Shown here: one piece after another, positions 284 through 38,700 of the stretch
Layout of the letters: each line of letters begins with the position of its first letter
Numbering within the stretch: position 1 is the first letter of the stretch
Made by a program: the position numbers and the translations under genes
Assembly (NCBI GenBank): GCA_903813345.2
Contig: CAIIXF020000001.1
Coordinates: 3,348,001-3,412,000, forward strand
Reading direction: 5' to 3'
DNA: 64,000 nt
DNA from: Owenia fusiformis
Taxonomy: Eukaryota
Notes under the pieces: generated by a model
Database searches by the model: none
The model's input: only the letters and a program-made list of their open reading frames with translations
Told to the model about the DNA's origin: nothing

Positions 284-1145
284 TACAATAGAACCTGTGT
301 AAGTGGAACACCCTCCGTTCTGCCAAAAAGCGTTCCACTTAGGAGGTGTTCCACTTACGGAGGTTTTGGGTTTGCGGGGATTTAACGAACATACAAGATT
401 AAATATAGAGTTGATATGTATCACTGAAAATAAGATTCTCCGATCATTGCAAGGCAGCTATATAGCATTAATTATCCATTTGTTTTACTCAAAAAGGTAT
501 CTGACATTCTAAATCCTCCTCATTCTGCCAAAAATGTTTTCTGACATTCTCAATCCTCCTCATTCTGCCAGTCTCAGACACTAAGATAAGGCAATTAAGT
601 TTTAAAGACTCGTTCCTAATGCTAATAATTCTTTTGTTTTTTAACTGACATTCTTAAGCTTACTTATTAAGTATGAAACAAACAGCAAGAGGTAAGAGGC
701 AAGAGCACCACATGTCCATCTCTTAATCCAATTTGCTGAATGATAATCTTATGAAATTCTAATTTGCTAATTATCAAATTAATTAGTGGTAGCATCACAT
801 GTTGATCTCTACAGGAGGTTAATCCAATTGACTATATGGTAATCCATTAAAATCCTAATTTGCCAATTATCACGTTATTACCTGTTTTTATACCCAGGTA
901 TCACTGTTGGAGGTTAATTTTGTTTACATAAGTATCACTATTGAAATTTATGGAAAATTGACTGTTCCACTTAGCAGGTTAATTTGTCAATATGGGGTGT
1001 TCACTGTTCAAGTTTGGAGGTGTTCCACTTACAGAGGTTCAATTAACATTAAGTCAATGGGTTTTTAAAACGGGACTTTGAAAAAGGGTTCCACTTGCGA
1101 GGTGTTCCACTTACGGAGATGTTCCACTTAGCAGGTTCTACTGTA
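284..1145. mobile_element. Non-autonomous Tc1/mariner/pogo-like MITE
   Basis: TA-flanked inverted ends tacaatagaacctg / caggttctactgta, with multiple subterminal GGTGTTCCACTTA motifs. Shorter relatives lie at about 30671-30839 and 39284-39452. Confidence 0.7.
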
Positions 1146-1155
1146 CTATGATTAC

Positions 1156-4100
1156 CTTCTTTCACAAGGTCAGCAAGCAGACCAGACCACTCCTGGCGAA
1201 ACATGTTAGCTCCTGTGAGACTTCCATCTCCACCAATCACAACAAGGTTTGTAATGTTCTTCTGGATGAGATTATACGCTGCCTTCTTGCGACCTTCACG
1301 TTCGCGAAATTCCTTACAACGAGCACTACCAATGATTGTGCCTCCCTGGAATCATGATAATATTTTGTTTTATATGAGGAAATATGAGGAAGTTTTAGTT
1401 TTCAGGATTAGAAATTTCTAATTTAGAGGGAACATTTCCCTAGCTCTATACCTCAATGCACAAAGCAGTATGCTGTTTATATATTTAAATGAAATGCTCT
1501 ACAATTACTAGCTTATGACAGCTTGGGCTTACCCTTTGAATAATATCCGAGACACTTTTCCAATGAGCTTCAACAATATTGTCTCCTCCATCAACCATGC
1601 CTTGGTAGCCCTACAATATCATTAAGATTAAGTACATCATGATGTATAAGAATTCATACAGGAACAGTCTACCATTTATCAAGTCTCTTTGAATGGGATC
1701 ATGAACACATACATGTATTATTTAATTTATTTACAGAATTAACTTTATACAGAAAGAAATCTAATTATGGTTAAAGAGGTAAAATTGATACAATTAGTAT
1801 AATAAGAACTTCATATAAAAGTTTTAACAGTAGATAGTCTTGCATAAAGCCTTTGTTATACCCCCCCCCGCCCCCCTACATATTTTGAGGTGGCAGGTAA
1901 ATGGGGTGGTACAAAGACTTGATGCAAGGGTAATCTTTACAATTACCAAATTAGCAAAATATCACAATATTCAATTTTTAGGATTTGTAATTAGTGATTT
2001 ACTAGACTTAGATTTACTAGACTACATGTGACTACTATAGAAAACAGAACATAAAGAACAATGTGCCATGCATTCACACTACTGATTAGTATAAATAAAT
2101 AAATTACCTATTTTATATATCTAAAACATGCAAGAGCTAGAGGAGAAGAAGTTTTAATTAAGTAAAATCAAAATTCAAAAAATTATATAACAAAACAGTA
2201 AGACAGATTAACAAAAAAAAAAAAAAATTATGATTAACAGATTAACTTATACAGTTGTACTGGCCAGCACACTGGTTTGAATTAAAGAAATACAAGGTTC
2301 TTAATTTGCCTAAAATGGATAGAAGAGGTACATGTACTGCATTACTAAAGCAGGCAAATGATTAATAATGGCAAAAGATTAATAATGAAGAATCAAAATA
2401 GGGTGTTGATAAATGATAAATGCAGAATCAAATCATACATAACTCATCTTAAGGGTTTATCCCCACAATAAAATCATTATGATTTCTTGGTAATAAAATA
2501 TCCAAACGAGACCATTCATTAACCTACATGTTCCTGACATGTTTCGATATCACTTCAAATACTGCAAATTATTTTGACATCATTTATGATGGGTACATAT
2601 CCAGAATTGCTTATGAGAACTATGATTATCAATATGATAATTAAAGATGCATTGTCCCATTCAAGAAAATAATGCATACAGAACAAACAGAAGATTGAAT
2701 ATGTCTATTGGCTTCCTGGTCATCTCAACCCCAAGTCAACTCAACCCAGTAAAACTCAACCCCAAGTCAACTCAACCCCAAGTCAAGTCAACCCCAGTAA
2801 AACTCAACCCCAAGTCAACTCAACCCTGTAAAACTCAACCCCAGTAAAACTCAACCCCTATATTTCTATATATTGATAAACTTACAAGAAAGTTTATTTC
2901 ATAAAAATAATTTTGATTATTCAGTTTGTGATTTTCATTATTAGACCACTGCCTTTTTAGATTATAGTTAATAATGAGTTTATCTCCAAAATCTCAACAT
3001 GGTACTAATAGGATTAAAATATGGGTCATTTTATTAATCTTGCTAATACATTTGTTTTGTTGTAATCCCTATGAGGTTGACACTCGTGATTATTTGGAAA
3101 ACTGGAACATGACCATTGCTTTCCAGGGGCATAGCCAGCTTTCAGTCAGGAGGGATGCGATCGCCCAAAAAATCAGGTTTTCAGTCAGAGGGTGCCGATC
3201 GTGGCATAAGCCAGCCAAAAAATATGTTTTGACAAAAAATGATGCAACTTCCTTCAAAATTGGGAGAGGGTGTGTGCACACCCCTCCTGGCTACGCCTAT
3301 ATGCTTTCAGGCTATTAATTAGTAAATGTTAATGGTTTTGTTAATGCATGTTCATATAAATGAAAAGTTATATTACATTGTTAATTATTTCTAAATTATC
3401 TGAAATTTGATTTCAAAAGATGTCTTAAATTAAATAATCGTGACAACTTGATGAATTATCCTTGAGCTTAACCGTTTTTTGGAATACTTTTACAACTTTC
3501 TATTCAAATTATCATGCAAAATGCTAGATTTTCAGAAATGAATGACTTAAATTATTCATCATAAAAAATTAAATTAGACATTGCACAAATGAATAGGGTT
3601 GAGTTTTACTGGGGTTGAGTTTTACAGGGTTGAGTTGACTTGGGGTTGAGTTTTACTGGGGTTGACTTGACTTGGGGTCGAGTTGACTTGGGGTTGAGTT
3701 GGACTGGGTTGAGATGACTTGGGGTTGAGATGACCTGTCACCGTCTATTGTGTCTATATACAGGGTAAGTCAAAAAACACTCATGTATTTGTTTTTGAAA
3801 AGCAATCAACTGAGTTCATAAAAACATTTCCACTGAAAAATAAACATCAATTTGAATTTTTCCAAAATAGCAAAAATATGTCCTCAGGTATTTTCAATGG
3901 AAATGGTTGAAATAAACTAGGGGTTCTTTTTGTCCCACCCTGTATATGTAACAATTTTGGTAAATATATTTATGGGACTTTCTATTCTCAACGCTTCTCC
4001 ACTAGTTTTGATAAAGAAATGTGAATGGCTATATCAGATATTTTTTGACAGCCAGATTCAGCCCTAAAAAATTATGTCAACATAATAGACTGATCTGAAC

Positions 4101-14542: not shown

Positions 14543-17230
14543 ATGAGGTAAAATTCTCCCATTACTTTCCCTTTTACAGATATATTCAAATTGATATCAA
14601 TTTTTATTTTGGTTCACTTTCAACATGAATGTTTCAACCTACCATTGAGATATATTTGAAATAATTGTGCTGCTCACACACTATAGAATCTTGAAATGTA
14701 AAATGGGTGATAATTTTGAAGTTGAAAAAAATGGCTGCCATGTTTTAATTTTGTATAAATAAGTCTAAGGAAAACTACATCTATAGTACTTGCAATTACA
14801 TTGTAAACTCACTACAAAGGTTATATCTCTCTCTAATGTATGTGTATTATTTCAGTACACTGCGTCTGCAGAAGCGTCTGGCATCTGCTGTGCTCAAATG
14901 CGGCAAAAATAAAGTTTGGTTGGACCCCAACGAAACAAATGAAATAGCAAATGCTAACTCACGTAAGTACATTTTGAATTAGTTCTGACTAAAGTGTTTA
15001 TTAACATAATCATAAACCTCATCTGATGATAATCACCAGATCATTGTCGAAATGGCAGCATTATATGCCTGATGGCTGATACGTATCATCTCTTCTCTGC
15101 TTTTGCAAATTATGTAACAAAGTCATTTCACTTAAATCTGATCTGCAGTAGAATTTCTGGATTTTGGAACATAAATGAATTGTCCTCGCATGTATCTGAC
15201 AGAACTCAGTCACTTGAACAGAATAGAATTGACCGAAATGAAAATCAACACACTCTGCTCATATTATTTGTCCCTGTCCTTGTCCCTTTAGAAGTTGTGT
15301 TTATTGCGATTCCAAAAAATCAGGGGTTATTTGCAAAATCCCAAATCTCATTCCAAACAATGCAAAAAGCAAGAAATTTTAAATTAAACTGGAGTTGATG
15401 CATAGTTCACCACCTTCTCGAATGCTGTTCACTCCAGAGAGATATCGGAGATCCATTTATATTTGTTTCGGTAAAATTTAGCGTGATTCCTCCAAGTATT
15501 GGTAGGTATTTTCGTAAGAAATAGATAAAAATATTGTATACAGATGACTGATTGGGGTGTTCTGCGGAACCATCGATTCCAAGTTGAATTTATTATTATT
15601 GTTTCGATTTGCAAGTGATCCGCTATCTGCTATCTGTTCCATTGGCTGTGAGACGAGATGTGTGTTCAAATACACTGTTTAGTTCATAGATTATCTTAGC
15701 AAGTATAAATGTTGCATTGTAAATATAAATATCTAATTTGTACTGTTGTATTTTTCTCAGGTCAGAATATCAGGAAACTGATTAAAGATGGTCTGATCAT
15801 CAGAAAACCTGTAGCAGTTCACTCCAGGGCTCGTGTGCGCAAAAATGCCATTGCACGAAGGAAGGGTCGTCACTCTGGCACTGGAAAGAGAAAGGGTACA
15901 GCCAATGCTCGTATGCCACAAAAAATTATCTGGATGAGGAGAATGCGTGTGCTTAGGAGACTTCTGAAAAAATACAGAGAAGCCAAAAAGATTGACAGAC
16001 ACATGTTAGTATACTTGGTTCTTTAGGAGTACCCATTTTAGTCTTTATAAGGACTTGCAACACATGACTGCATACATGCATCTTTTCATCATTTCAAAAT
16101 TACTCAGTTTTTTCATTGTAGACATCAAGTATCAAATTAGCCTCCCATAAGTAAATTGTTTAGAGCATAGGTTTTCCTTTTTGGGTAATCATGTAATGGT
16201 GTCTTCTCATATCAATACCATTATTTAACACTGACTGAATCTTAGTCCTTCTGAAATCATATTGATCTTGAGGCATCAACGCCTCTAAGTTAAGCTGAAG
16301 AAAATGAGCTTCCTGGCAAATTTAAAACAAAAGAAATAAATTCGAGGTTAAGTATTGATGTCTTTCAAATAATGTAGTATTCTTTGGTGTCTCAAACGGA
16401 CAGGCCAGTCAGCCAAATTAATGAATTAAACTAAAAATATGATTTAGTATTTACTTTATGTATAATTGCATTGTATTCCACAAAAATCAGGAAATTCCTG
16501 TATGTGTTTCAACAAAGATAAAGTATTCTTCTTTCTGATTTCCAGGTACCATCAGTTATACTTGCAATGCAAGGGTAACACATTTAAAAACAAGAGAGTC
16601 CTCATGGAACACATTCACAAAGAAAAGGCTAAGAAACTCCGAAGCAAACAGCTCAGGTTGGTTGATAGAAAACAATTGGTTATTGCAACCTTATTGCGAC
16701 AGCTCACATCACAGTTACTAGAATTACGTGTTTACTCAGACATTTAATTTCGCATAATTTTGCATTTCTGGAAATGCCACATAATTCATTCACCACTCGG
16801 AGCATAATTGTTTGTATAATTTACATTTTTCTGAAAGAATGTAGTCGAATTTATCTTACTGCAATACTTAACATTTTCACTAAACCAAAGCAAGTCAAAT
16901 TCCTATATGAAATGATCATTTCATTTAGGGCCAATGCTCTGGGACATAAACGAGAATGAACCAGTGAGCTGTAAATGTATCATATTTGCTGTCAATGAGT
17001 TCTACCTCGACATTTCAACTCTACCAAAATTCTCTTGATTACCATTTTGATCAGTTACAATAAATATATCACCTGTCACCTAAATTGTTCTCTTTTCTTC
17101 CAGTGACCAAGCTGAAGCCCGCAGGACGAAGACTCGTGAAGCTCGCAAGAGACGTGAGGACCGTATCGCACTCAAAAAGCAGGAGCTTCTCAAAACTTAT
17201 GCCAAGGAAGATGAGGCCGCCAAGAAATAG
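14543..17230 (+). CDS. RPL19: 60S ribosomal protein L19 (eL19), 197 aa
   Basis: Exons 14543-14547, 14856-14962, 15761-16004, 16546-16656, 17104-17230 (594 nt). Translation [51 protein letters not shown]...[12 protein letters not shown]...AAKK*. ATTAAA at 17255 and 17268. Confidence 0.98.
16884..17015 (+). ncRNA. Intronic box H/ACA snoRNA, predicted 18S rRNA pseudouridylation guide
   Basis: Hairpin 1 (ccaaagca/tgctctgg lower stem, tccta/taggg upper stem), H box ACATAA 16944-16949, hairpin 2 (cgag...ctcg), then ACA at 17010-17012 plus 3 nt. About 132 nt in total. The pocket agtcaaatt + gcc is complementary to the conserved 18S sequence GGC-UU-AAUUUGACU. Confidence 0.75.
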
Positions 17231-26700: not shown

Positions 26701-29700
26701 AATTATAAGAATATATAATTAAGTGTATATACAGAATATGATTCGGTATGAAACGCTGAATTGGAGATTCTTAAACTAAATAAAATATTCGCTTTCAGGG
26801 TGAATGTTCAGCTTCAGTATTCAGGTTTTTAGGCAAATTGTTTTGTATTAATGTCAAATAATACACAGAAATTCTCATTTAATCTCCAGTGTGACTATTG
26901 GGATTGATTACATTGCTGAGATCAATTTTCTGCTGCCAGTCATGAAGGAAATAATGTTCTAGGCATGATTATGACGCACATGCACCAACATCCTGTAATA
27001 ATTATCCCATCGAATGAAGTTGGGAGGATATAGAGAACGCCTCTGTCCGTCTGTCTGGGCAATAGTTGGAATTCCATTGACCCAATGGCCAATATTGTTT
27101 ATATTTTATAACATATGACATATGCCCTATATGAGTAAAGTTGATTTTGGAAATGGCCACCAGTTTTAAAATAGCCACCATTTTAGTGTCAATTTTACAG
27201 TATTTTAGTTACAATATGTAATTCTGCATTACTTAAAGTAAAAACATGGCAGCCATGTTGAGTGATTTTTTGTTGAAATTTTACGCATGAATACTTGAAG
27301 CATATTACACTAATGACAGTGTAGTGGAGCGATTTTGGTGATATTTTTTATGTGAATTCTTATTAAAACTTTAAAGGCATGTATTACCTAATGACACTTT
27401 GGAAAATATTGGGAGCCATTTCCAGGAAATTATGGCCATTTTTGTTTGTGTTATTCTACATTTTTGCTATAATTGGAAAAGAAATAGAGCAATTTTGTTG
27501 ACACTGTTAAATTATATATCTGCTTTATATGGGCTTATTAGCCTATTGCAGATTATTGACATAGACATATCTTTTAGCAATACATCTATGGTTGCCATTT
27601 TGTGACATGATTTCTAGCAGTGTTGTCTGACACTCAATAGATGTTTGATAGGATCTTTCTCTTTGGCGTTGCTGTTATCTAGTTAGATATCCATTTTCAG
27701 GTCGTTATAGAGAAACCAAGCCTGGTGATTTTCATTACTTGAGTTTTCAATTTTGTGACATTCCTTTTCAGGTCCCTGGAGAGCAGATCAGATTTTCCAT
27801 TGATCTGTGAATAAATGTGCATCATATTAACTGCTTTGATTACTTACTAGGTATACCCCAGTAGGGCGTAGTTTTTTCTCACCCCCAGAGGGTAATTATG
27901 ACCACCCATTAGGCGGTGGGAGAGAAGTTTGGTTTGGGTTCCACCAGAGTGTACGTCCATCTTTGTGGAAGATGATGTTGAACATTGATGGTAAGACTGA
28001 ACTGTGTATATTTCCATGTATTGTTCTATGGTATGTGGCGGACCTGGCTAGCTGGCTTTTTCAATACAGGTGTAGGATGTGGCTACTTTGCATTTTTGAT
28101 AGCATGCATGGATGATCTGTTGTGCTGGTGTTTCTTTCATTATTACCCAAAGCATTCACATCAAGAATTTCTTGTGAAATACAATTCTTTCTGGCTTAAA
28201 CAACAACAATATCAACAATATGTTCACAATTTTTATATATAGTATATTCACATATTTATTTCACAAGATTCACACAGATTGATCTCTCATATTAATCTTG
28301 TGACATCATATATTGGGATGTTCAAAGTCAAATTGTATTTCACTAAGAAGGGAAATCTTGGTTCATACATGTTTGCTTGGTGTGTTTGTCTGCCTGCTTA
28401 TATATATTGGGATTCCATCCCCCAAGTGCACCTAATAAAAGAACTTTAAGGTACACCTTAGGGATGTTCCCTGGAGGTTTAAAAATAGTATTTTTGGTAC
28501 TTTTGTCATTCATAGTTTTCTGAGGTTCTAATTGGCAACAAAAGATATAAAACTTAAAAAATTATATTCTGTTAGTGTGCTTTTTTCCAAGAAATATTTG
28601 ACAAAATTGGGCGTGGCACTACCTCATTGAATCCCATGTAAACAATCAGATTTCACCCGAAACACAATTTGAAGTATTTAACTTTTCTTAAACTCACAGG
28701 AACACTTAGTTATGATATGTACATTACATTTGGAAGAAAGAAAATTTACCAATTAATGTTCATAATTTTCAACTTTGTCCAGGGTACATCCTTAATGGAT
28801 TTAAAAAACAGTGAATTCAAAACATTACAGGCTGGCATCTTGATAGAAATTGAGTTGTATGAATCCATGTTTTTTGGAGCTTGGTGATAGCTTAAGCTTG
28901 GGGATGGCTTTCTTAGTTATAATATAAGCAGGCAGATGCGTCATGTCACCGTTTTTGGTGTACTTTGTTTTAACTTCAATATTATGGTTACCTACAGCTT
29001 TAAAGAAACAATCAATTGAGTAGCCTAATTTGAAGTTTAGCAAAGTGCATATTCAATGACTGCCCCAGGTTCCCATGGTTTTTGTTGCTTGCTTTGAGTT
29101 TTCACCTTTACGTAGTCATGTGTTTAATTGCACAGATATACCCCAGTCGGCCGGTCTTTTTTCTCACAACCGGAAGGCTACAATCACCCCTTAGGTGGAG
29201 GCAGGGAGGTTTGGTTTGGATTCCACCAAAGTATCAGACCAACTCTATGGAAAATGATGCTTAACATAGACGGTAAACAAACGCAATGATATATTATTGT
29301 AATGGCCTTGTTAGTATAAATGCTTTCTTGGATTGGTGCTAGAATCTTAGACATTGTATTAAGTTGTTTTTATGTGTTACTTGGTCCGATGCATGTATAT
29401 AGTAAGATAAACTATTAAGAGGAAAATATTTAAATAATATGTGTTTTTTCGCTGCATATTTACTCTAGTATTCACATATTTCTTTGTTAGTTATGTTGAT
29501 TAATAAAAATACCTAGAGATATGCCTGCCAGTAAAAGAGCAAGATCTCTAGTAATAAAAATTAAAGTGATCAAATTTACTTTGTTTATGCTTATTTGAGG
29601 AAAGCCAGAAGGATGAGGCTGGTAGCATCTAATTTCACAATCTATTTTATTTAGTTTCTGCCACTGCCTTCTATCAGGCACAACCTGTGATAGAGTTCAT

Positions 29701-32700
29701 GTGTAAAGTCCTTGAAATGAGAGATGCCAGTGAACAACGTCGCCCACTTACTGATTCGCAACGAGTTAAATTCACCAGGGAAATCAGAGGTAAATGCTAC
29801 ATTCTGCTTTATTATTTTATTCAGTGTCCGCAACTGCGTTCTATAAAGCTCAGCCTGTCATCGAGTTCATGTGTGAGGTCCTTGACATGCGAGACGCCAG
29901 TGAACAACGACGTCCACTAACTGATTCTCAGAGAGTTAAATTCACCAAGGAGATCAGAGGTAAACAAATAAACAATATCTGTGAGTTGTGAAGCAAACAA
30001 ACAATGTTGTTGCGTGTTGGTGTTTGTAAACGTAGTACTCATAAGTCTTGTATCAAGCCATTGTGTACCCCCCCCCCCCACCTCAGCATTAAATGCTTTA
30101 TGAACCAGTGTAAGACCGATTTGGCAAATTAGAGCGCAGTAGTAGAGACAAGAGAGCAACCCCTTTGCTTTCAATAAAAATATACCACCAGTTATTATAT
30201 GCAGTTCATCTATCCATGTGTAATGCATTCATTTAGGCAATAAAGACGCTAACACCTGACACCTGGCTATTGCCTCATGAATAATTGGTTACACCCAAAG
30301 TACTTACAAATAATCCTCTATGAAAAGAGATATGATAATGGGGGAAATAACCTTGATGCAAGACTATAAACGCATGAAAGTTGATGTAAATATTATCTTT
30401 AATAAAGCTGGAAACTTGCTTGTAAATTTTACAGGTCTGAAAGTGGAGATCACACATTGCGGCACCATGAAACGAAAATACAGAGTTTGCAATGTTACAC
30501 GTCGTCCAGCGCAGACACAATCGTAAGTTAATTTATCAGTTTATCTTGTGGCTGTATTTTTGATGAGTGACTGGATTTGTTATCAAATAACTTGCGTGGT
30601 TAGCCATTTCCCACACTTGTAAGAGTATAGGCAACTTGGATTTAGTGAGTGAATCCATAAATTGGTACATGTACAATTATAACCTGTGAAGTGAACACCT
30701 CCATAACTGGAACACTTTTAAAGGTCACTTACCCATTAGCTTCATGTAAAATGAACTTCTGTACGTGGAATGCCTTCTAAGAGGACCATTTACTATTTAA
30801 AGGTACCAAATGTGTTCTACTTACACAGGTTTTACTGTATATCATAAAATCTACATGTGAAATATGTTTTTTCAGCTTCCCACTCCAGCTTGAATCTGGA
30901 CAAACCGTGGAGTGCACAGTGGCCAAATACTTCTTTGAACGATACAAAATGAAACTTCAGTAAGTATAAATGCAAATTTTTATTGGAACTGGTAGTGTTG
31001 GAATCCCCATGTTGTTGATTATACAGGGTCTTGATAGTTCATCCATGTTCCTCTACATTGAGAAAACGATACCTTCATCAAACTTACTTTGATGTTACTA
31101 TAACAAAATAAGAATAAACATTTAAACTTGTTCAGCATTTTCTTGTCAATGTCAAATGTTTTGATACGATAACATAAAAAAGTGATTTGATTTGTGAATC
31201 CATGTTAAAATTCTTATGTATATTACAGTGAGATGTTTCCTGTTATTTCAGATTTCCTCACCTGCCATGTTTACAAGTAGGTCAGGAACAGAAGCATACC
31301 TACCTTCCCTTAGAGGTATGGAGTTACCTTATCACGAATTAAACCTTATTTAAGAGGCAAATTAATCATTTATATACATACATATAAAATATGAGCTGAA
31401 TAACTTCAACGTCTATGATGAAAAAAAATTAAAAATTACCACGGTGTGTTTTGCTATTATTTGATTCATTGTCAAATGATTATGTGCTTATCTCAGTTCA
31501 CCTTATGATCACCTCAGTTATTCTATAGCTATCAATTCATTTTTCCATGACTATCACTTTATTGTACCACATCTTTCACCTTATTTATTCTGCAAATGTA
31601 CTCCAAATATTATGTTCCACTCAATAGTTTCCTTCCTGAAAAAATATTAGCCTGACTCATTAAAACTCACTCTTAAATTGTGGCCTCGGAGTTAATTTTA
31701 CTCCTAACCTATACTATGTGTATTACATCATGTGCATTATTACATCATGTGCATTATTACATCATGTGAATTAGGTGTGCAGGGTCATTGCTGGGCAGAG
31801 ATGTTTGAAGAAGTTGACTGACAACCAGACCTCCACTATGATCAAGGTAGTTATATTTTTACATGTTTATCTTGTAGGTTTGTGTTATAGTGGCTGGACA
31901 ACGCTGTATGAAGAAACTCACTGACATGCAAACATCAACCATGATCAGGGTATTCTTTTCATTCACATATTATACATGTGTTATATACCTGTTATTAGTA
32001 GCAAGCATGGTAAAGTTTGAACCTATGGACCATACATGCGTCATCGTGTGCTACTCTTAAAAGTGTCATAAATGGATACGTGGTGATTAGATTGCTGTTG
32101 TTAAACTCTGAAATGAGTCATACAGCAAAAGTAAATTTTCTGTATTCACATACAGATTTTTTTGTACATGGTGATGTATTCTTAGCCGCACTTTATTAGC
32201 TGAGAAATCTAATAGTTTAGCCTATTGTATGTAATTATCAAAGAGGTAATTACAAGTACCTATATGTAACCTGAAAAAAGTACAGGTTAAATGAATATGT
32301 TACTGTATGAATTTGTTCCTTCCGAAATTTCGGTTTTCTGAAAATTATGACATTGATATCTGGTAAAAGTTCAAAATCAATTCATGGAAGTGACCCGGGA
32401 ATATGTTGATAAAATGCAATCAACATCTTCATTGCAACCATGTATATCAAACTTCTACCATGCACTATTAGATAAAGTGTAATGTAGCATGCATGAGTAC
32501 ACATTCATCCCTTCTTATCCGCTATTGAAAATTGTGCAATGATACAACTTTTTTATTTAAATAGTGCAATGTTTAGGCAAGCAGAAATTTATTTTAGAAA
32601 GGCCTGCTTTAGTTCAGTTCATTGTTCTACGGAAGTTGTAGAATTTATGTATACTCATGTATTTCTATTAGTCATACTCAAGTAGATAATCGAAATGTGA

Positions 32701-35700
32701 TTATTAAATTTTTGTCTAACTAAGTTCTCTAATTTTTTTATTAAATGTATGAACTCGTATTTCATCAATGAAAATTTGGTCTAGAATCTAGACTGCATGT
32801 TGATTAGATGATTATTCCTATTTGCATGATTTGTTGTCTTTCTTTGAGAATATATCTTCAGAATATGATAAAGGATTCCTTTTCAATATGTAATTCAGAT
32901 TGAAAGTTCTATATACATGTTCATGTGTCAGGTGAGTTGATCTGGATGAATAATAAATATACACATGGATGTCTGGGATATGACAGACCATTGAATCCTC
33001 AAAGCACTAAATCCTTTAGTAGGATTATGAGCCATTTAGGTAGGCATCGGTATAGATTTTGGACATGGTACACATGTAAAAGGCCCAACAGCCAGTTTAA
33101 TCACTGTACACTGCCTACCTAAGTCTTTGTGACTCCTATTTGTGAAGAGTTATTTTATGTCTGACAATTAACATATATTGTATTGTTATATTGTAGGCAA
33201 CTGCCAGATCTGCACCAGATAGAGAGAAAGAGATCAATAGCTTGGTAAGTCAGCATTCCCCATTAAAGTAATTATTACCACTAGGAATACATTCAAGCTT
33301 AAGCAGTCTAAAGGCTCATTGAATTTCCCTGTCTTAATGTTAAATAAATGATATATAAAATGTTATCATATGGACTATCATTGTTGGTAAATGCTTAGAA
33401 GTGAATATACATTGTTCAACACATCAGTGACTGGTGCTTACAAATTGATTGCTTTATACATTAGATACATATCACTTTGTTTTCTCATATACATTTATTA
33501 TACATGTATGTGAAATTGATTATATGCTGGAGATAAAACATGGTAAGATACTCAGATACGCAGCTGTAATTTTGCCAAGCTAGAAATTTTTTGTCCAAAA
33601 TTAAGGTCGAGGATAAATATAAGTTAAATGATCAAACTAGCCTTTCCTTTAACCCTTATCCTCCCAAGACTAGATTGTTTCATGATTCTATACTTCTGCC
33701 ACCAGAAGTTGTGTCGATGCCAAAATTATTTCTCCCAACTTCTTTGTGACCAAAATATTGTTTAAAAATCAATGATACCAGAAACTTATTTGTAAGGTAA
33801 ATAAAGAAAATGTTGGAACATACATATCAGTACATTTTTAAGCATTATGAAATTCCTGACATTTTATTACTTGTCACTGGGAGATAAGGGTTACATAGGA
33901 ATGTTAGTTTTGCCTAAATGTTTAATTTCTTCATTGTACAGTATGCCAGAAGGAGGAATTTTTGTAAGAGTTTACTTGGTTATAATATAAAGCCAACAAG
34001 TTTGACCATTTCCATGTATTTCTATATTCATGTGTTTTTGTGATACACTTTTCGAAACACTCAAAGTTTTAGTTTTTAGAGAATTTTGTCTTTTGCCCAT
34101 TTTTATATCACTTTCTTTTCTTAAATCTTTATATCTAAAAAAAGAGATGATGAATTTTTTTGTCCATTTTTTATCAGTTTCTTTTCTTATAAATTAATAT
34201 CTAAAAAAGAGAAATTAACTTCCAATCTCCTTTCAGTCTACTTCTGTTGCCCTTGTATTACAAAAGTCATCCCCAAGTATCATTCTGCTGTGTTTCTCCT
34301 TTTGATTAAATCTCCTGTCATTAGAATTGTGTTGAAATGATTAGCATTATGTTGTATAACTCAAACAAGCTTAAAATTATATAGAGTGAGCTTGAAAATA
34401 TTTGCACTCCATTCAAATATGTCGGAGAAGTTGACCAGAGTTGACGGGAGGACAGTAATTGCACCCATTGATCTTATTTCTTGCCATGTGCCTAGGTACG
34501 CAAAGCTGACTTCAACAATGACCACTACCTACAAACATTTGGCATCAGCGTGGCGAACGCTATGACCGAAGTTCAGGGTCGTATCTTGCCCCCGCCTAAA
34601 CTACTCTATGGTGGAAGGGTAGGCATACATTATACAACCCCCGATCAAAGACCACAATAATACAGTCATACAGCATAATGAATCAAATTATTTAATTCGC
34701 ACAATAAAATTAATTCTCATCAATGAAGTCAGTTTATTATGCTCCATTCATGTATAGTTTGGGATTTTTCATATAAAGAAATGGTTGCATTTCTTTCAAA
34801 CCATATTATGCTGTGTGTTTAGAAATTATTGTGTCCTTTGATGTTTATTTTTCAGTCTGACTGGCAATAATAGGCTGAGAAACAATGCATATGACATTTC
34901 TGTCAATCCCAGCAGTTGATATGCATATATGGCCTAATATTGCATGTGATATGGTGAGAGGTGTGCAATGGCTGGTCACTCACACTTAACCAATCGGGTG
35001 CCTCTGTCTGTCTACTTATAAGCCGCCATTTCACACCTCATCACCATTGCTGTCTCAGTGAGAGGCATGTTTGTGATATGAAAGGTCCCGTCACTTCTGA
35101 GTGTTCGGAGTGCCCTCTGGTGATGTATGTTTGTGATATCGTGTTTTGCGACCCATTCTGTTGCCATTAGGTTCGTAAAGCTGATTTCAACTCGGATCCC
35201 CATCTACAACTGTTCGGAGTGAGTGTGTCCAACAGAATGGTAGAAGTCCAAGGCAGAGTTATCCCACCCCCCAAACTACTGTACGGAGGAAGGGTATGTT
35301 AAGAAGGACCACGCCTGTGATGCATGCGTTGTTTCAAAATACAGACAAGCTGAATGTTCTGAGCTGCCAATCATCATCTATCCCATAATGCACCTGGTGC
35401 TGTCTGCTCTTTCACTTCCAGATAATTCCCCATTCAAAAACTGTCAATTTTTGGTCTAAGAAGTATTGGAGAAAAAAAATGAAAAACAAGAAATAAAATC
35501 TGTTACATTTTGGGGAAATGTCTTGCAGATGAGAGAGTGGCAGGCATATTGTTATATGTATGTCTTGAGGAAGTGTAGATGTTTTATTCGAAAACCTACG
35601 TGTTTTGTCGAGATTTTCTCTTTGTTTAGTTTGTCTAATACTCTAACATCACTTCATAACCTCTGTACAAGTAATCATCAATCCAAGCACTGTTTTAGAC

Positions 35701-38700
35701 ATCAAACATGGTTTTTGAGAAACCGAAAACTTAAAGAAACTGGAAAATGATTATTACTTGTTTTGTTAGATCTAGTAGCTCAGATAATTTCAGTTTTGTT
35801 GTCTTTATAGTTTTAGTTTATTTTCTATTTTGGTTTCAGTATTTAGCCATAATATCCCAAAATTATCTTTTTAAAATATTTTTAATGCATGTTCATTATT
35901 ATTTAATTTTTGTATGCAAATTCTGAAATCACTTGTTTACACTGGACATGTATTATAGTGCAAATTATCCATTGCAATGTTGTTCCTTTAAATTAGTGCA
36001 GGTAGGTAGGTATTCACCATATTCACCTCATATATTGTTATCCCATATGTGCTTTTAGAATTCATTCCCAAGTGGCTGAACAGATTCTCATTCATATATT
36101 TAGTCCTAGATCATTTCCCAATTTTTTGTTTTGTTTTTATGTCACCACCAAAAGTGGTGACATATTATTAAAGTCTCCAACTCTTTGTGGACTGTGTTCA
36201 GCAGTTGATGTTCGGTGGTTGGTGTTCAGCATCTGTAATAAATGGCAGGTAGTGACATTTTGCATGCTGATGCCTTGTTAATAATTGAAATGAAATTGTT
36301 TAGTTTTGAATTATTATGATTTCATAGTAATTTTATTTTGACTTGAATGTAACCTATTCAATCATGATTAACCAAACGTGTGATGTGCTCGAGTGAAAGT
36401 GTGTGTGTTTGGATCAGTGTGATAAGAAAGAAAATAAAAAGTAATATCTGGAGTACATTTCATCAAGAAAGGTTTTAAACTCAATGATGTACAGGTGTGT
36501 AGATTTGAGTAAGCTTTGTATTTGGTAAATGCTCCAGATGTAACACTCCCATGTGATCGATGTATGAATGTGGCTTTATTCCCAACTGGCTTACATCTTG
36601 ATGAGAACATCTTTCATTTACATGTGCTTATGTAAAGCTCACATGTTCTTCACATGAAAACACATATTTTGCAATTATAAACAGAAGCACTATGAGATAC
36701 AAATTCGAACATTTTCTCATCACCAAATTTTGCACTTTGTCATTTCATCTTAGAAATCAGTATAAAATTTTTATGTTGAAAATATATTTACTATTAGTTT
36801 TATTATATCCATCACACTATTTGCAACTCAAGACAACACTAATAAAGTTTTTAAAGAATTACCAACTGAACATAAAATCTTGTTACCATGACAACGAGAA
36901 ATCAGATTTATACAAACATTGATTTTACTTGTAGACGAAAGCCCAGGCTATTCCCAACCAGGGAGTATGGGACATGAGAGGTAAACAGTTTTACAGTGGA
37001 ATAGAGATCAGAGTCTGGGCAATTGCATGTTTTGCACCTCAGCGTACAGTCAGAGAAGATGCTCTAAGGTAAAAACAATATAGCCCCCAAGAGTGCTTTA
37101 AATAATAATTATTCAATAATTGTATATATGAAATTATAAACAGTTTGTTGAGGGGAGAAGTACTCATGAAAATATAGAACAAATGAAGTAAGAATGATCC
37201 ATCCCCTGGACAAAGATCACATGACTGAGGTCAAGGTCACGAGGTAACTGAGACTTCAAACTGTTAGAATCGAAGAGTTTTACTTCTGAAATGCTAAGCA
37301 AATAAAGATAAATTCAACAAATAGTAAACTTAACTCAAGGGTACACAAGAACAAGTTAACTTGTGTTGCTTTGGGCACTTTAGAGAAACAATCATTTTCG
37401 ATAAATAGTAAATAAAAAATTTTCCAGTTTTATGATGAGAAAAAAGCCTTGCTATTTAATATTTATGAATTATTTTTCAGAAACTTCACATCCCAGTTAC
37501 AACGTATATCTAACGATGCAGGAATGCCTGTAGGGGGTCAACCATGTTTCTGTAAGTACGCCACAGGCCCTGACCAGGTAGAGCCCATGTTTAGATACCT
37601 GAAGAACACATACCAGGGCCTACAGCTCATCGTCGTTGTGCTTCCTGGAAAAACACCCGTATATGGTAAGTGTTGAAATTTTATTACAGTAAAGACATTT
37701 CAATTGAACAACTCTCTACAAAGAAGTTAGTCCCATTTACATGTAATATAAATGAACCCCCACTATCTATGAGGAACTATTTGGCCAATACTGAATGTGT
37801 TCTGTTGACACAGGTTTTATAATATGAAGTAAAACCTGTTTCTTTGAATACCAAAAGGGTTCCCTGGGGTTTGAAAAACAAAAATCCCTGGCCTGGAAAA
37901 GTTCATGAATTTCAGAATTTCCTTTAAAATGTCTAAAATTGATTTTATGCTGGTAGCATGTCTGTGATGTTCTTTTTTGTGTAATGCCAAGAATAACAGT
38001 TCCCTTTACTACATGGAAGTTTCTATGTATTTTAGCTGAGGTTAAGCGAGTGGGTGATATTCTATTTGGTTTGGCCACTCAGTGTGTTCAGGCAAAGAAC
38101 GTCATTAAAACATCCCCACAGACCCTCTCTAACCTATGCCTTAAGATCAACGTCAAACTAGGTGGCATCAACAGTATACTCATGCCTAGTGTTAGGTAAG
38201 TCATACATTTCTGCTATAGGTTCATTGTAAACAAAATTATATACTGTATTCTCTGTATTGGCTTGGGAGTTTATGAAATTCGAAATACATCCTTCAGACC
38301 ATTCAAATAAGCGCCCATAAATGAACGTTAAAAATCCCTGGTAGTTTCATATGTGGCAATTTTCTTGCCAAGAATGGCTTATTCTCATTTGAATTTATAT
38401 CTTAAATTTTTAATTGAATGACAGATCATCATTTTCAAGTTCACAGCCCTGAAGTGCGCAGAAGCTTTCTTGGTTACATGTTGAAACATTGTTCTTAAAC
38501 TTGAACATTTCCTTCATTCATATATCAGGCCAGCAATATTCCGAGAGCCTCTCATCTTCATTGGTGCCGACGTAACTCACCCGCCAGCAGGTGACGTGAC
38601 AAAACCCTCAATAGCAGCCGTTGTGGGCTCACAGGATGCCCATCCCAGTCGATACGCCAGCACTGTCAGAGTCCAGTCTCACCGGCAAGAAATTATCACC

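Follow-up and report, generated by a model that had tools for sequence, protein, structure and literature searches.

An Argonaute gene of Owenia fusiformis with a tandem-duplicated pair of mutually exclusive exons, flanked by intronic complementarities that exceed chance only marginally

We analysed a stretch of 64,000 nucleotides (nt) from an assembly of Owenia fusiformis (GenBank GCA_903813345.2, contig CAIIXF020000001.1, positions 3,348,001 to 3,412,000 of the forward strand), hereafter the window, in which positions are counted from the first letter. It carries a gene classed by its sequence as an AGO-clade Argonaute, and two neighbouring exons of this gene, 13a and 13b, are a genuine tandem-duplicated, mutually exclusive pair that is really used as alternatives in RNA. 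A first-pass annotation of the window had proposed that long-range RNA helices around 13a compete with a local hairpin and so act as a splicing switch. Such a competing-helix switch was not supported. In the reading that we consider probable, the exon pair is real, the helices are mostly chance pairing at the level set by base composition, and the choice between the exons is governed mainly by splice sites and trans-acting factors.

The G+C content of the window, about 30-39% in 2-kb windows, is that of AT-rich eukaryotic DNA. A tblastn search with a 1488-amino-acid (aa) Argonaute-1 protein (P0003, found by a protein search in which exon 13a, used as query against longer proteins, gave four matches) traced an Argonaute gene of many exons in collinear order, on the + strand between about 24808 and 43740. 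Exons 13a and 13b matched the Pfam ArgoL2 profile at 55.5 and 50.2 bits (cut-off 33.3), and matches to the Piwi profile scored 108.9 and 148.1 bits (cut-off 28.9). With profiles above their cut-offs and a collinear exon order, the sequence places the gene in the AGO clade. The exons of the cluster are as follows.

33197..33244, + strand: exon 12, constitutive, donor for 13a and 13b alike (tblastn with P0003; joints 33243>34495 and 33243>35170)
34496..34618, + strand: exon 13a, 123 nt, 41 aa, ArgoL2, donor GTAGGC
35171..35293, + strand: exon 13b, 123 nt, 41 aa, donor GTATGT
36935..37068, + strand: exon 14, constitutive, acceptor for both (tblastn; joints 34617>36934, 35292>36934 and 37066>37479)

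The two copies are homologous and equal in length, with 76% protein identity; each is in frame and flanked by AG and GT, and 552 nt lie between them. Aligned to human AGO2, both cover residues 384-423; the L2-linker segment that they encode corresponds to AGO2 residues 383-423.

Both exons were found spliced into RNA. We mapped stranded raw RNA sequencing reads with the same species label from two runs, X21 and X22, on positions 27500-37500, about 6% of each run being read. In X21, exon 12 was joined to 13a by 24 reads and to 13b by 61, while 16 reads joined 13a and 77 joined 13b to exon 14; the corresponding counts in X22 were 22, 72, 21 and 73. The 13a:13b junction ratio was thus about 1:3 in both runs, with 13b the major form, and by these counts some 20-25% of the transcripts in these samples use 13a. 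No joint from 13a to 13b occurred among the 15 splice joints listed of 99, a result that leaves room for rare double inclusion or skipping. Contigs from a third run, X4, presumed to be RNA, included spliced sequences of both forms at word depths of 930 vs 490 and 1092 vs 612, a bias opposite to that of X21 and X22. The ratio therefore appears to differ between samples; because expression is poorly reflected in contig depth, this is only a hint that it is regulated. On the joints listed and the spliced contigs, 13a and 13b are homologous alternative exons of which each transcript carries one.

The duplication may be old. Metagenome contigs scanned with both exon translations yielded 18 loci, two of which had two tandem copies of exon 13: L002 (1638-1760 and 2493-2615) and L003 (1390-1512 and 1992-2114). 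A third, L004, contained exons 11 and 12 and the first copy, its contig ending 201 nt further on. In eight of the other 15 loci, exon 12 ran straight into a single copy; six of these were intronless throughout (cDNA-like), and L005 and L006 had introns elsewhere. The remaining seven of the 18 formed a more distant group. In bacterial and archaeal contigs none of 62 pattern matches was confirmed as a relative, and in viral contigs none of 51. The exon 13a DNA of the relatives was about 71-74% identical to that of the window. The residues DPHLQLFG, common to 13b and the second exon of L002, suggest an old, shared duplication of exon 13 and are the sole basis on which these two might be called orthologous. 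A tree built on 41 columns from the exon copies supported none of its eight inner branches.

The donor sites of the two copies differ consistently. All four first copies (the window at 34619-34624, L002, L003 and L004) had a GTAGG donor, which in three of them read GTAGGCA, whereas the three second copies had GTAAG or GTATG (in the window at 35294-35299). The single-copy relatives L005 and L006 had GTAAGT or GTGAGT. By the rules of U1 pairing, GTAGG is weaker than the consensus, and its conservation on the proximal exon agrees with a choice governed by splice-site strength and factors. We infer that unequal splice sites, with a donor off-consensus on 13a and near-consensus on 13b, together with trans-acting splicing factors would mainly set the choice. 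One candidate site for such a factor lies just after 13b.

35321..35326, + strand: TGCATG, 28 nt downstream of 13b, a lead only

We take this to be an Rbfox-type motif. In L003, GCATG and TGCATG follow the second copy at 72 and 114 nt.

Other familiar routes to exclusive splicing do not account for the pair. Exclusion by reading frame or nonsense-mediated decay does not apply because both exons are 123 nt long, and the 552-nt intron between them likewise removes steric hindrance; the first-pass annotation had set aside frame and steric exclusion as well. Nothing points to a branch point near the 13a donor, the AG-free zone ahead of 13b spanning 58 nt of that intron. Incompatibility of U2 and U12 sites was not found, all borders being GT..AG, and no donor resembles the U12 consensus.

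The complementarities proposed to form the switch are four helices (H1 to H4) between intron 12 and the inter-exon intron, and one hairpin. All five are present at the positions given and pair as had been described.

34404..34410, + strand: 5' arm of H1, GCACTCC, forming 7 Watson-Crick pairs with GGAGTGC at 35107-35113 (-11.4 kcal/mol)
35107..35113, + strand: 3' arm of H1, GGAGTGC, which holds the last AG (35109-35110) ahead of the 58-nt AG-free zone of 13b
34436..34449, + strand: 5' arm of H2, candidate upstream docking element, pairing with 35086-35099 (-18.8 kcal/mol alone; -27.4 when extended to 34457 : 35047-35055)
35086..35099, + strand: 3' arm of H2, candidate selector, 72-85 nt upstream of 13b
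34450..34455, + strand: 5' arm of H3, GGACAG, which holds the last AG (34454-34455) ahead of the 13a acceptor
34460..34470, + strand: 11-mer TGCACCCATTG containing the 5' arm of H4, lying in the AG-free zone (38 nt) ahead of 13a
34991..35009, + strand: 3' partners of H4 (34991-35001) and H3 (35004-35009), located in the hairpin loop
34951..35047, + strand: local hairpin, arms 34951-34972 and 35025-35047, 52-nt loop

H2 consists of 12 Watson-Crick pairs, one G-U pair and one mismatch. H3 (34450-34455 : 35004-35009) has five Watson-Crick pairs and one G-U pair (-6.3 kcal/mol), and H4 (34461-34470 : 34991-35001) has 10 pairs and one bulged C (-12.6 kcal/mol); the two together form a duplex of -19.7 kcal/mol. 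The 21 pairs of the hairpin are interrupted by one mismatch and one bulge and include an ungapped core of 15 nt; the hairpin arms reach -32.9 kcal/mol. H1 and H2 thus link a flanking intron to an internal one in an arrangement that would loop out an exon.

Pairing probabilities were computed in contexts of 775, 1001 and 1601 nt with RNAfold, which cannot model pseudoknots. The hairpin had a probability of 0.92-0.95 in all three contexts and H3/H4 a probability of about 0, so that any competition between these folds is far from equal. H1/H2 reached about 0.6-0.7 in 775 and 1001 nt and 0.03 in 1601 nt. Only H3/H4 cross the hairpin. H1/H2 surround it without conflict, and H1, H2 and the hairpin coexist in the minimum free energy (MFE) and centroid folds of 34396-35170. 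The claim that the hairpin crosses the long-range helix and competes with it was therefore right about the crossing of H3/H4, but H1/H2 are nested and the competition is lopsided. Within a nested fold, H3/H4 would not be expected to form against the hairpin. Opening both sites for a contact of H3 and H4 would cost 9.9 kcal/mol against the -19.7 kcal/mol of the duplex, and these energies make a loop-to-strand pseudoknot coexisting with the hairpin possible, if marginal once a closure penalty is included. With H3/H4 at about 0, and H1/H2 at 0.03 in the longest context, the idea that the four helices act together as a switch that loops out 13a and masks its branch-point region is not supported.

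How far the pairing exceeded chance depended on the test. Scored with RNAduplex, 34396-34480 against the whole inter-exon intron gave -52.3, a value reached by 16 of 500 shuffles of the 34396-34480 side (-44.7 ± 3.8) and 6 of 500 shuffles of the intron side (-42.2 ± 3.9). Restricting the partner to the 185 nt just before 13b gave -47.7, which 30 of 300 shuffles reached (-41.6 ± 4.6). A compact helix of -27.4 was equalled or bettered at four of 96 arbitrary placements in the window (mean -21.1 ± 3.9; one further placement overlapped the target itself and is outside the 96). When one side was aligned locally to the reverse complement of the other, the score was 10.0, compared with 9.3 ± 1.8 for shuffles, 181 of 500 of which reached it. 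Duplex energies thus exceeded those of shuffled sequence marginally, and the local alignment score did not stand out. Overall, the excess of H1-H4 pairing over shuffles and genomic background was marginal, and no test of excess over chance gave a strong result. Because the alignment score is at the level of shuffles, we also reject an origin of the arms by inverted duplication.

The same was true of the folds. The expected number of long-range pairs between the first 100 and the last 552 nt of the 775-nt fold was 18.6; for 40 random 775-nt segments it was 20.1 ± 12.0, and 23 of them reached 18.6. Because so many random segments pair end to end as much, finding H1/H2 in the fold is uninformative. 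For the hairpin alone z was -3.0, and 2 of 200 shuffles equalled it. The 64-kb window contains 42 short inverted repeats of 15 nt or more within 120 nt, the 25 longest all being at least 16 nt. We regard the hairpin as an unremarkable example of the short inverted repeats that this genome often contains.

No comparable pairing was seen in the relatives. The introns of the window, L002, L003 and L004 did not align to each other past the exon borders, so covariation cannot be scored. Neither of the two relatives that carry both exons showed pairing like that of the window: against shuffles, L002 gave a z of +1.37 (274 of 300 reaching) and L003 a z of +0.13 (154 of 300 reaching), and their best compact helices, -22.4 and -20.8, were at background level. 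Around the first exon copy, no helix exceeded a probability of 0.3 in L002 or in L003, with 4.8 and 6.3 expected enclosing pairs, respectively. As these relatives are distant, the result speaks against an ancestral structure and not against a young one; a lineage-specific structure is still conceivable because the introns are too diverged to align. A run of about 17 G at 2809-2831 of L002, downstream of the second copy and possibly an assembly artefact, produced spuriously strong duplex scores of -31.2. Among the 40 variant entries listed of 190, those within 34404-35113 were at 34694 and 34702 and a 3-nt deletion at 34791, none of them in a helix.

Of the arms, only the 5' arm of H4 recurred, in one of three relatives (L004). 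Apart from these two places, the 11-mer around it was absent from the window and from the 17 loci other than L004. It was absent from L003, whose exon is nearer to that of L004 than the window's is (83% vs 71% DNA identity), and L002 resembles the same stretch with the ACCCATT motif deleted. ACCCATT is found again 20 nt upstream of 13b. Pairing of TGCACCCATTG with its one-bulge complement at 34991-35001 scored -14.9, the 13b-side copy of ACCCATT reaching only -9.0 there, and in the 201 nt of L004 downstream of the exon the 11-mer had no good partner. Ordinary conservation of splice signals explains the motif equally well, because it sits in the branch-point zone. We read TGCACCCATTG tentatively as a remnant of an ancestral sequence near the branch point.

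Several observations weigh against regarding the helices as chance pairing. When all 1251 nt of intron 12 were scanned without bias for contacts to the inter-exon intron, the top rank went to H2 together with its extension (34436-34457 : 35047-35100) at -27.4, and the next-ranked contacts of intron 12 fell in the same 70 x 160 nt patch. This extended helix lies in the top 4% or so of the genomic background and is situated like stem I of the Drosophila serpent (srp) cluster. The 775-nt fold (34396-35170) was more stable than any of 20 shuffles (z -3.46). The copy of TGCACCCATTG in L004 (1868-1878) is identical and ends 26 nt before the exon, compared with 25 nt in the window. On the side of splicing factors, no TGCATG followed the second copy in L002, and we found nothing that positively explains why 13a is not joined to 13b.

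The leading alternative is a loop-out of the stem I type, in which H1 and H2 (34404-34449 : 35086-35113) would loop out 13a together with the hairpin, bring exon 12 near the 13b acceptor and favour 13b, with 13a used when the stem fails. We regard this as possible but doubtful. H1/H2 form the strongest contact between intron 12 and the inter-exon intron, but their significance was marginal in the duplex, placement and alignment tests. Their probability of 0.6-0.7 at 775 and 1001 nt, and their presence in the MFE and centroid folds, must be set against 0.03 at 1601 nt and against the end-to-end pairing of 23 of 40 random segments. Being nested with the hairpin, they require no competition; their 3' arms stop exactly at the start of the 58-nt AG-free zone of 13b, and 13b was the major form in X21 and X22. 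The srp cluster offers a precedent with the same layout (PMC4691838), yet the analogue was found in neither relative with both exons, the 5' arms are not conserved in L004, and no stem II partner downstream rose above background, the best scores being -21.1 within the first 560 nt of the 1641-nt intron and -23.2 over its full length. That H1/H2 are specifically a lineage-specific pairing resembling srp stem I, which biases the Argonaute pre-mRNA toward 13b, seems to us unlikely.

The full model of the first-pass annotation, in which an H3/H4 extension competes with the hairpin and the opening or closing of the hairpin decides whether the 13a branch-point region is masked, is very improbable. 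The 5' arm of H4 does lie in the AG-free branch-point zone of 13a, within the 11-mer common to L004, but that 11-mer is missing from L003 and L002 and lacked a good partner in the 201-nt flank of L004. The ACCCATT copy 20 nt upstream of 13b recalls duplicated selector arms (PMC6071210), but pairs with the same site at only -9.0. While the -19.7 kcal/mol of H3+H4 over an opening cost of 9.9 leaves room for a loop-to-strand pseudoknot, the arms of the hairpin (-32.9, compared with -6.3 for H3 and -12.6 for H4) and its probability of 0.92-0.95 against about 0 in all three contexts argue for the hairpin. That annotation had named missing conservation or covariation and shuffle-level pairing energy as grounds for giving the idea up, and on those terms it is close to refuted. 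Least probable of all is that the hairpin (34951-35047) has a function of its own as an RNA, for example as an intronic precursor of small RNAs, or that it is left over from a mobile element. Its fold is very stable and independent of context, but comparable inverted repeats are frequent in the window and no Rfam match at E<=1 covered it; the scan of 33000-37000 returned only two weak, unrelated matches (E 0.66 and 0.7). A 52-nt loop is atypical for animal microRNA (miRNA) precursors. DNA depth over the hairpin was 134-186, compared with 60-95 elsewhere and 10^3-10^5 in true repeats, and on this near-single-copy depth we reject an origin from a high-copy mobile element. Thus, we favour control by unequal splice sites and protein factors, to which H1/H2 could add a modest loop-out bias toward 13b without being the switch itself.

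The 13 cluster is one of four in the gene, the other three pairs of homologous tandem exons being the following.

27852-27989 / 29137-29272, + strand: pair 8a/8b
29654-29791 / 29824-29961, + strand: pair 9a/9b
31775-31849 / 31878-31949, + strand: pair 11a/11b

Read counts for the joints in X21/X22 were 58/56 for 8b>9a, 21/14 for 8b>9b, 40/39 for 9a>10 and 17/12 for 9b>10. Exon 8a had a depth of 0 in these runs and was joined to 9a in X4 contigs only, and 11b had a depth of about 1 in X21/X22 and 20 in X4. X4 thus uses 8a and more 13a, and X21 and X22 use 8b and more 13b. Four exon pairs would allow up to 16 isoforms. Unlike 13a and 13b, pairs 9a/9b and 11a/11b are separated by spacers of 32 nt (29792-29823) and 28 nt (31850-31877), too short for an intron, and their exclusivity is accordingly one of steric hindrance. 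The introns of cluster 8a/8b showed no pairing over background, the best values being -20.5 and -21.6.

Some further features of the window were recorded. Intronic high-copy repeats had summed contig word depths of about 10^5 at 35850-36517, about 8x10^4 at 27500-27833, about 10^4 at 30506-30839 and about 10^3 at 28502-28835, compared with about 80 elsewhere; their high depth, with reads on both strands and hundreds of loose ends, points to mobile elements. Just upstream of exon 11a, a CAC insertion at 31741 in a 17-nt tandem repeat (31721-31773) was carried by 12 of 15 and 10 of 16 RNA reads and also by contigs. Judged by eye from their translations, the open frame at 1052-1351 (- strand) is presumably a phosphofructokinase-like candidate and that at 15709-16023 (+ strand) presumably a ribosomal protein L19-like one.

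The solid result is that a core effector gene of small-RNA pathways makes alternative proteins through a swap of homologous exons in the L2 linker. We found no published account of mutually exclusive exons in an Argonaute gene in open-access papers and preprints. If the isoforms differ in the handling of guides or targets, this would be a new layer of small-RNA regulation. If the H1/H2 loop-out is true, RNA structure would help to determine, tissue by tissue, the L2-linker variant in which a miRNA-class Argonaute is made, and a real RNA-structure switch would be another example of the docking/selector type beyond the classic insect cases; at present it is a candidate only.

The closest known parallel is the srp gene of Drosophila, where, according to Yue et al. 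2016 (PMC4691838), exons 4.1 and 4.2 are controlled by bidirectional long-range RNA pairing and the upstream pairing directs inclusion of the distal exon 4.2. Both are two-exon mutually exclusive clusters, and in both an element in the intron after the upstream constitutive exon complements an inter-exon element, an arrangement that would loop out the proximal and favour the distal exon. In srp, however, four intronic islands are described as highly conserved, the pairing as present in all species surveyed and a second stem as lying downstream (PMC4691838), whereas H1/H2 have no conserved island, stem II is at background and two relatives lack the pairing. The srp stems were also put through disruption and compensation experiments (PMC4691838).

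The proposed likeness to docking/selector control in Dscam1, 14-3-3 and Mhc holds for the exon cluster and the loop-out placement, but not for conservation or for multiple competing pairings. As in the Dscam1, 14-3-3zeta and Mhc clusters, a flanking intron complements an internal intron within a mutually exclusive cluster (PMC6071210). Those clusters are defined by several selectors that compete for one docking site, a feature not seen here: no second selector for the same site exceeded background and a single partner stood out, and two or more mutually exclusive pairings were not found (H3/H4 about 0, the ACCCATT copy -9.0, stem II -23.2). Ivanov and Pervouchine (2018) report a tendency of the introns flanking such clusters to pair with internal ones, and suggest that a stem-loop arm duplicated along with its exon becomes a competing selector (PMC6071210). 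That tendency raises the prior for pairing here and does not single out this helix. The window fits their model in having an ACCCATT-containing motif upstream of both copies and a partly complementary site between them, and departs from it in the weak pairing on the 13b side (-9.0 kcal/mol).

Exclusivity that the reading frame does not explain is also seen in exons 4a/4b of OGDH, where distant branch points are reported to enforce it (PMC7969005); the AG-free zone of 13b, by comparison, is just 58 nt. In their general character, 13a and 13b resemble the substitution events described for tandem-duplicated exons (PMC9741552), in which homologous neighbours of equal length and phase are swapped, with no difference in kind. 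What is particular to the present case is that the host gene encodes an Argonaute and that four such pairs occur in one gene.

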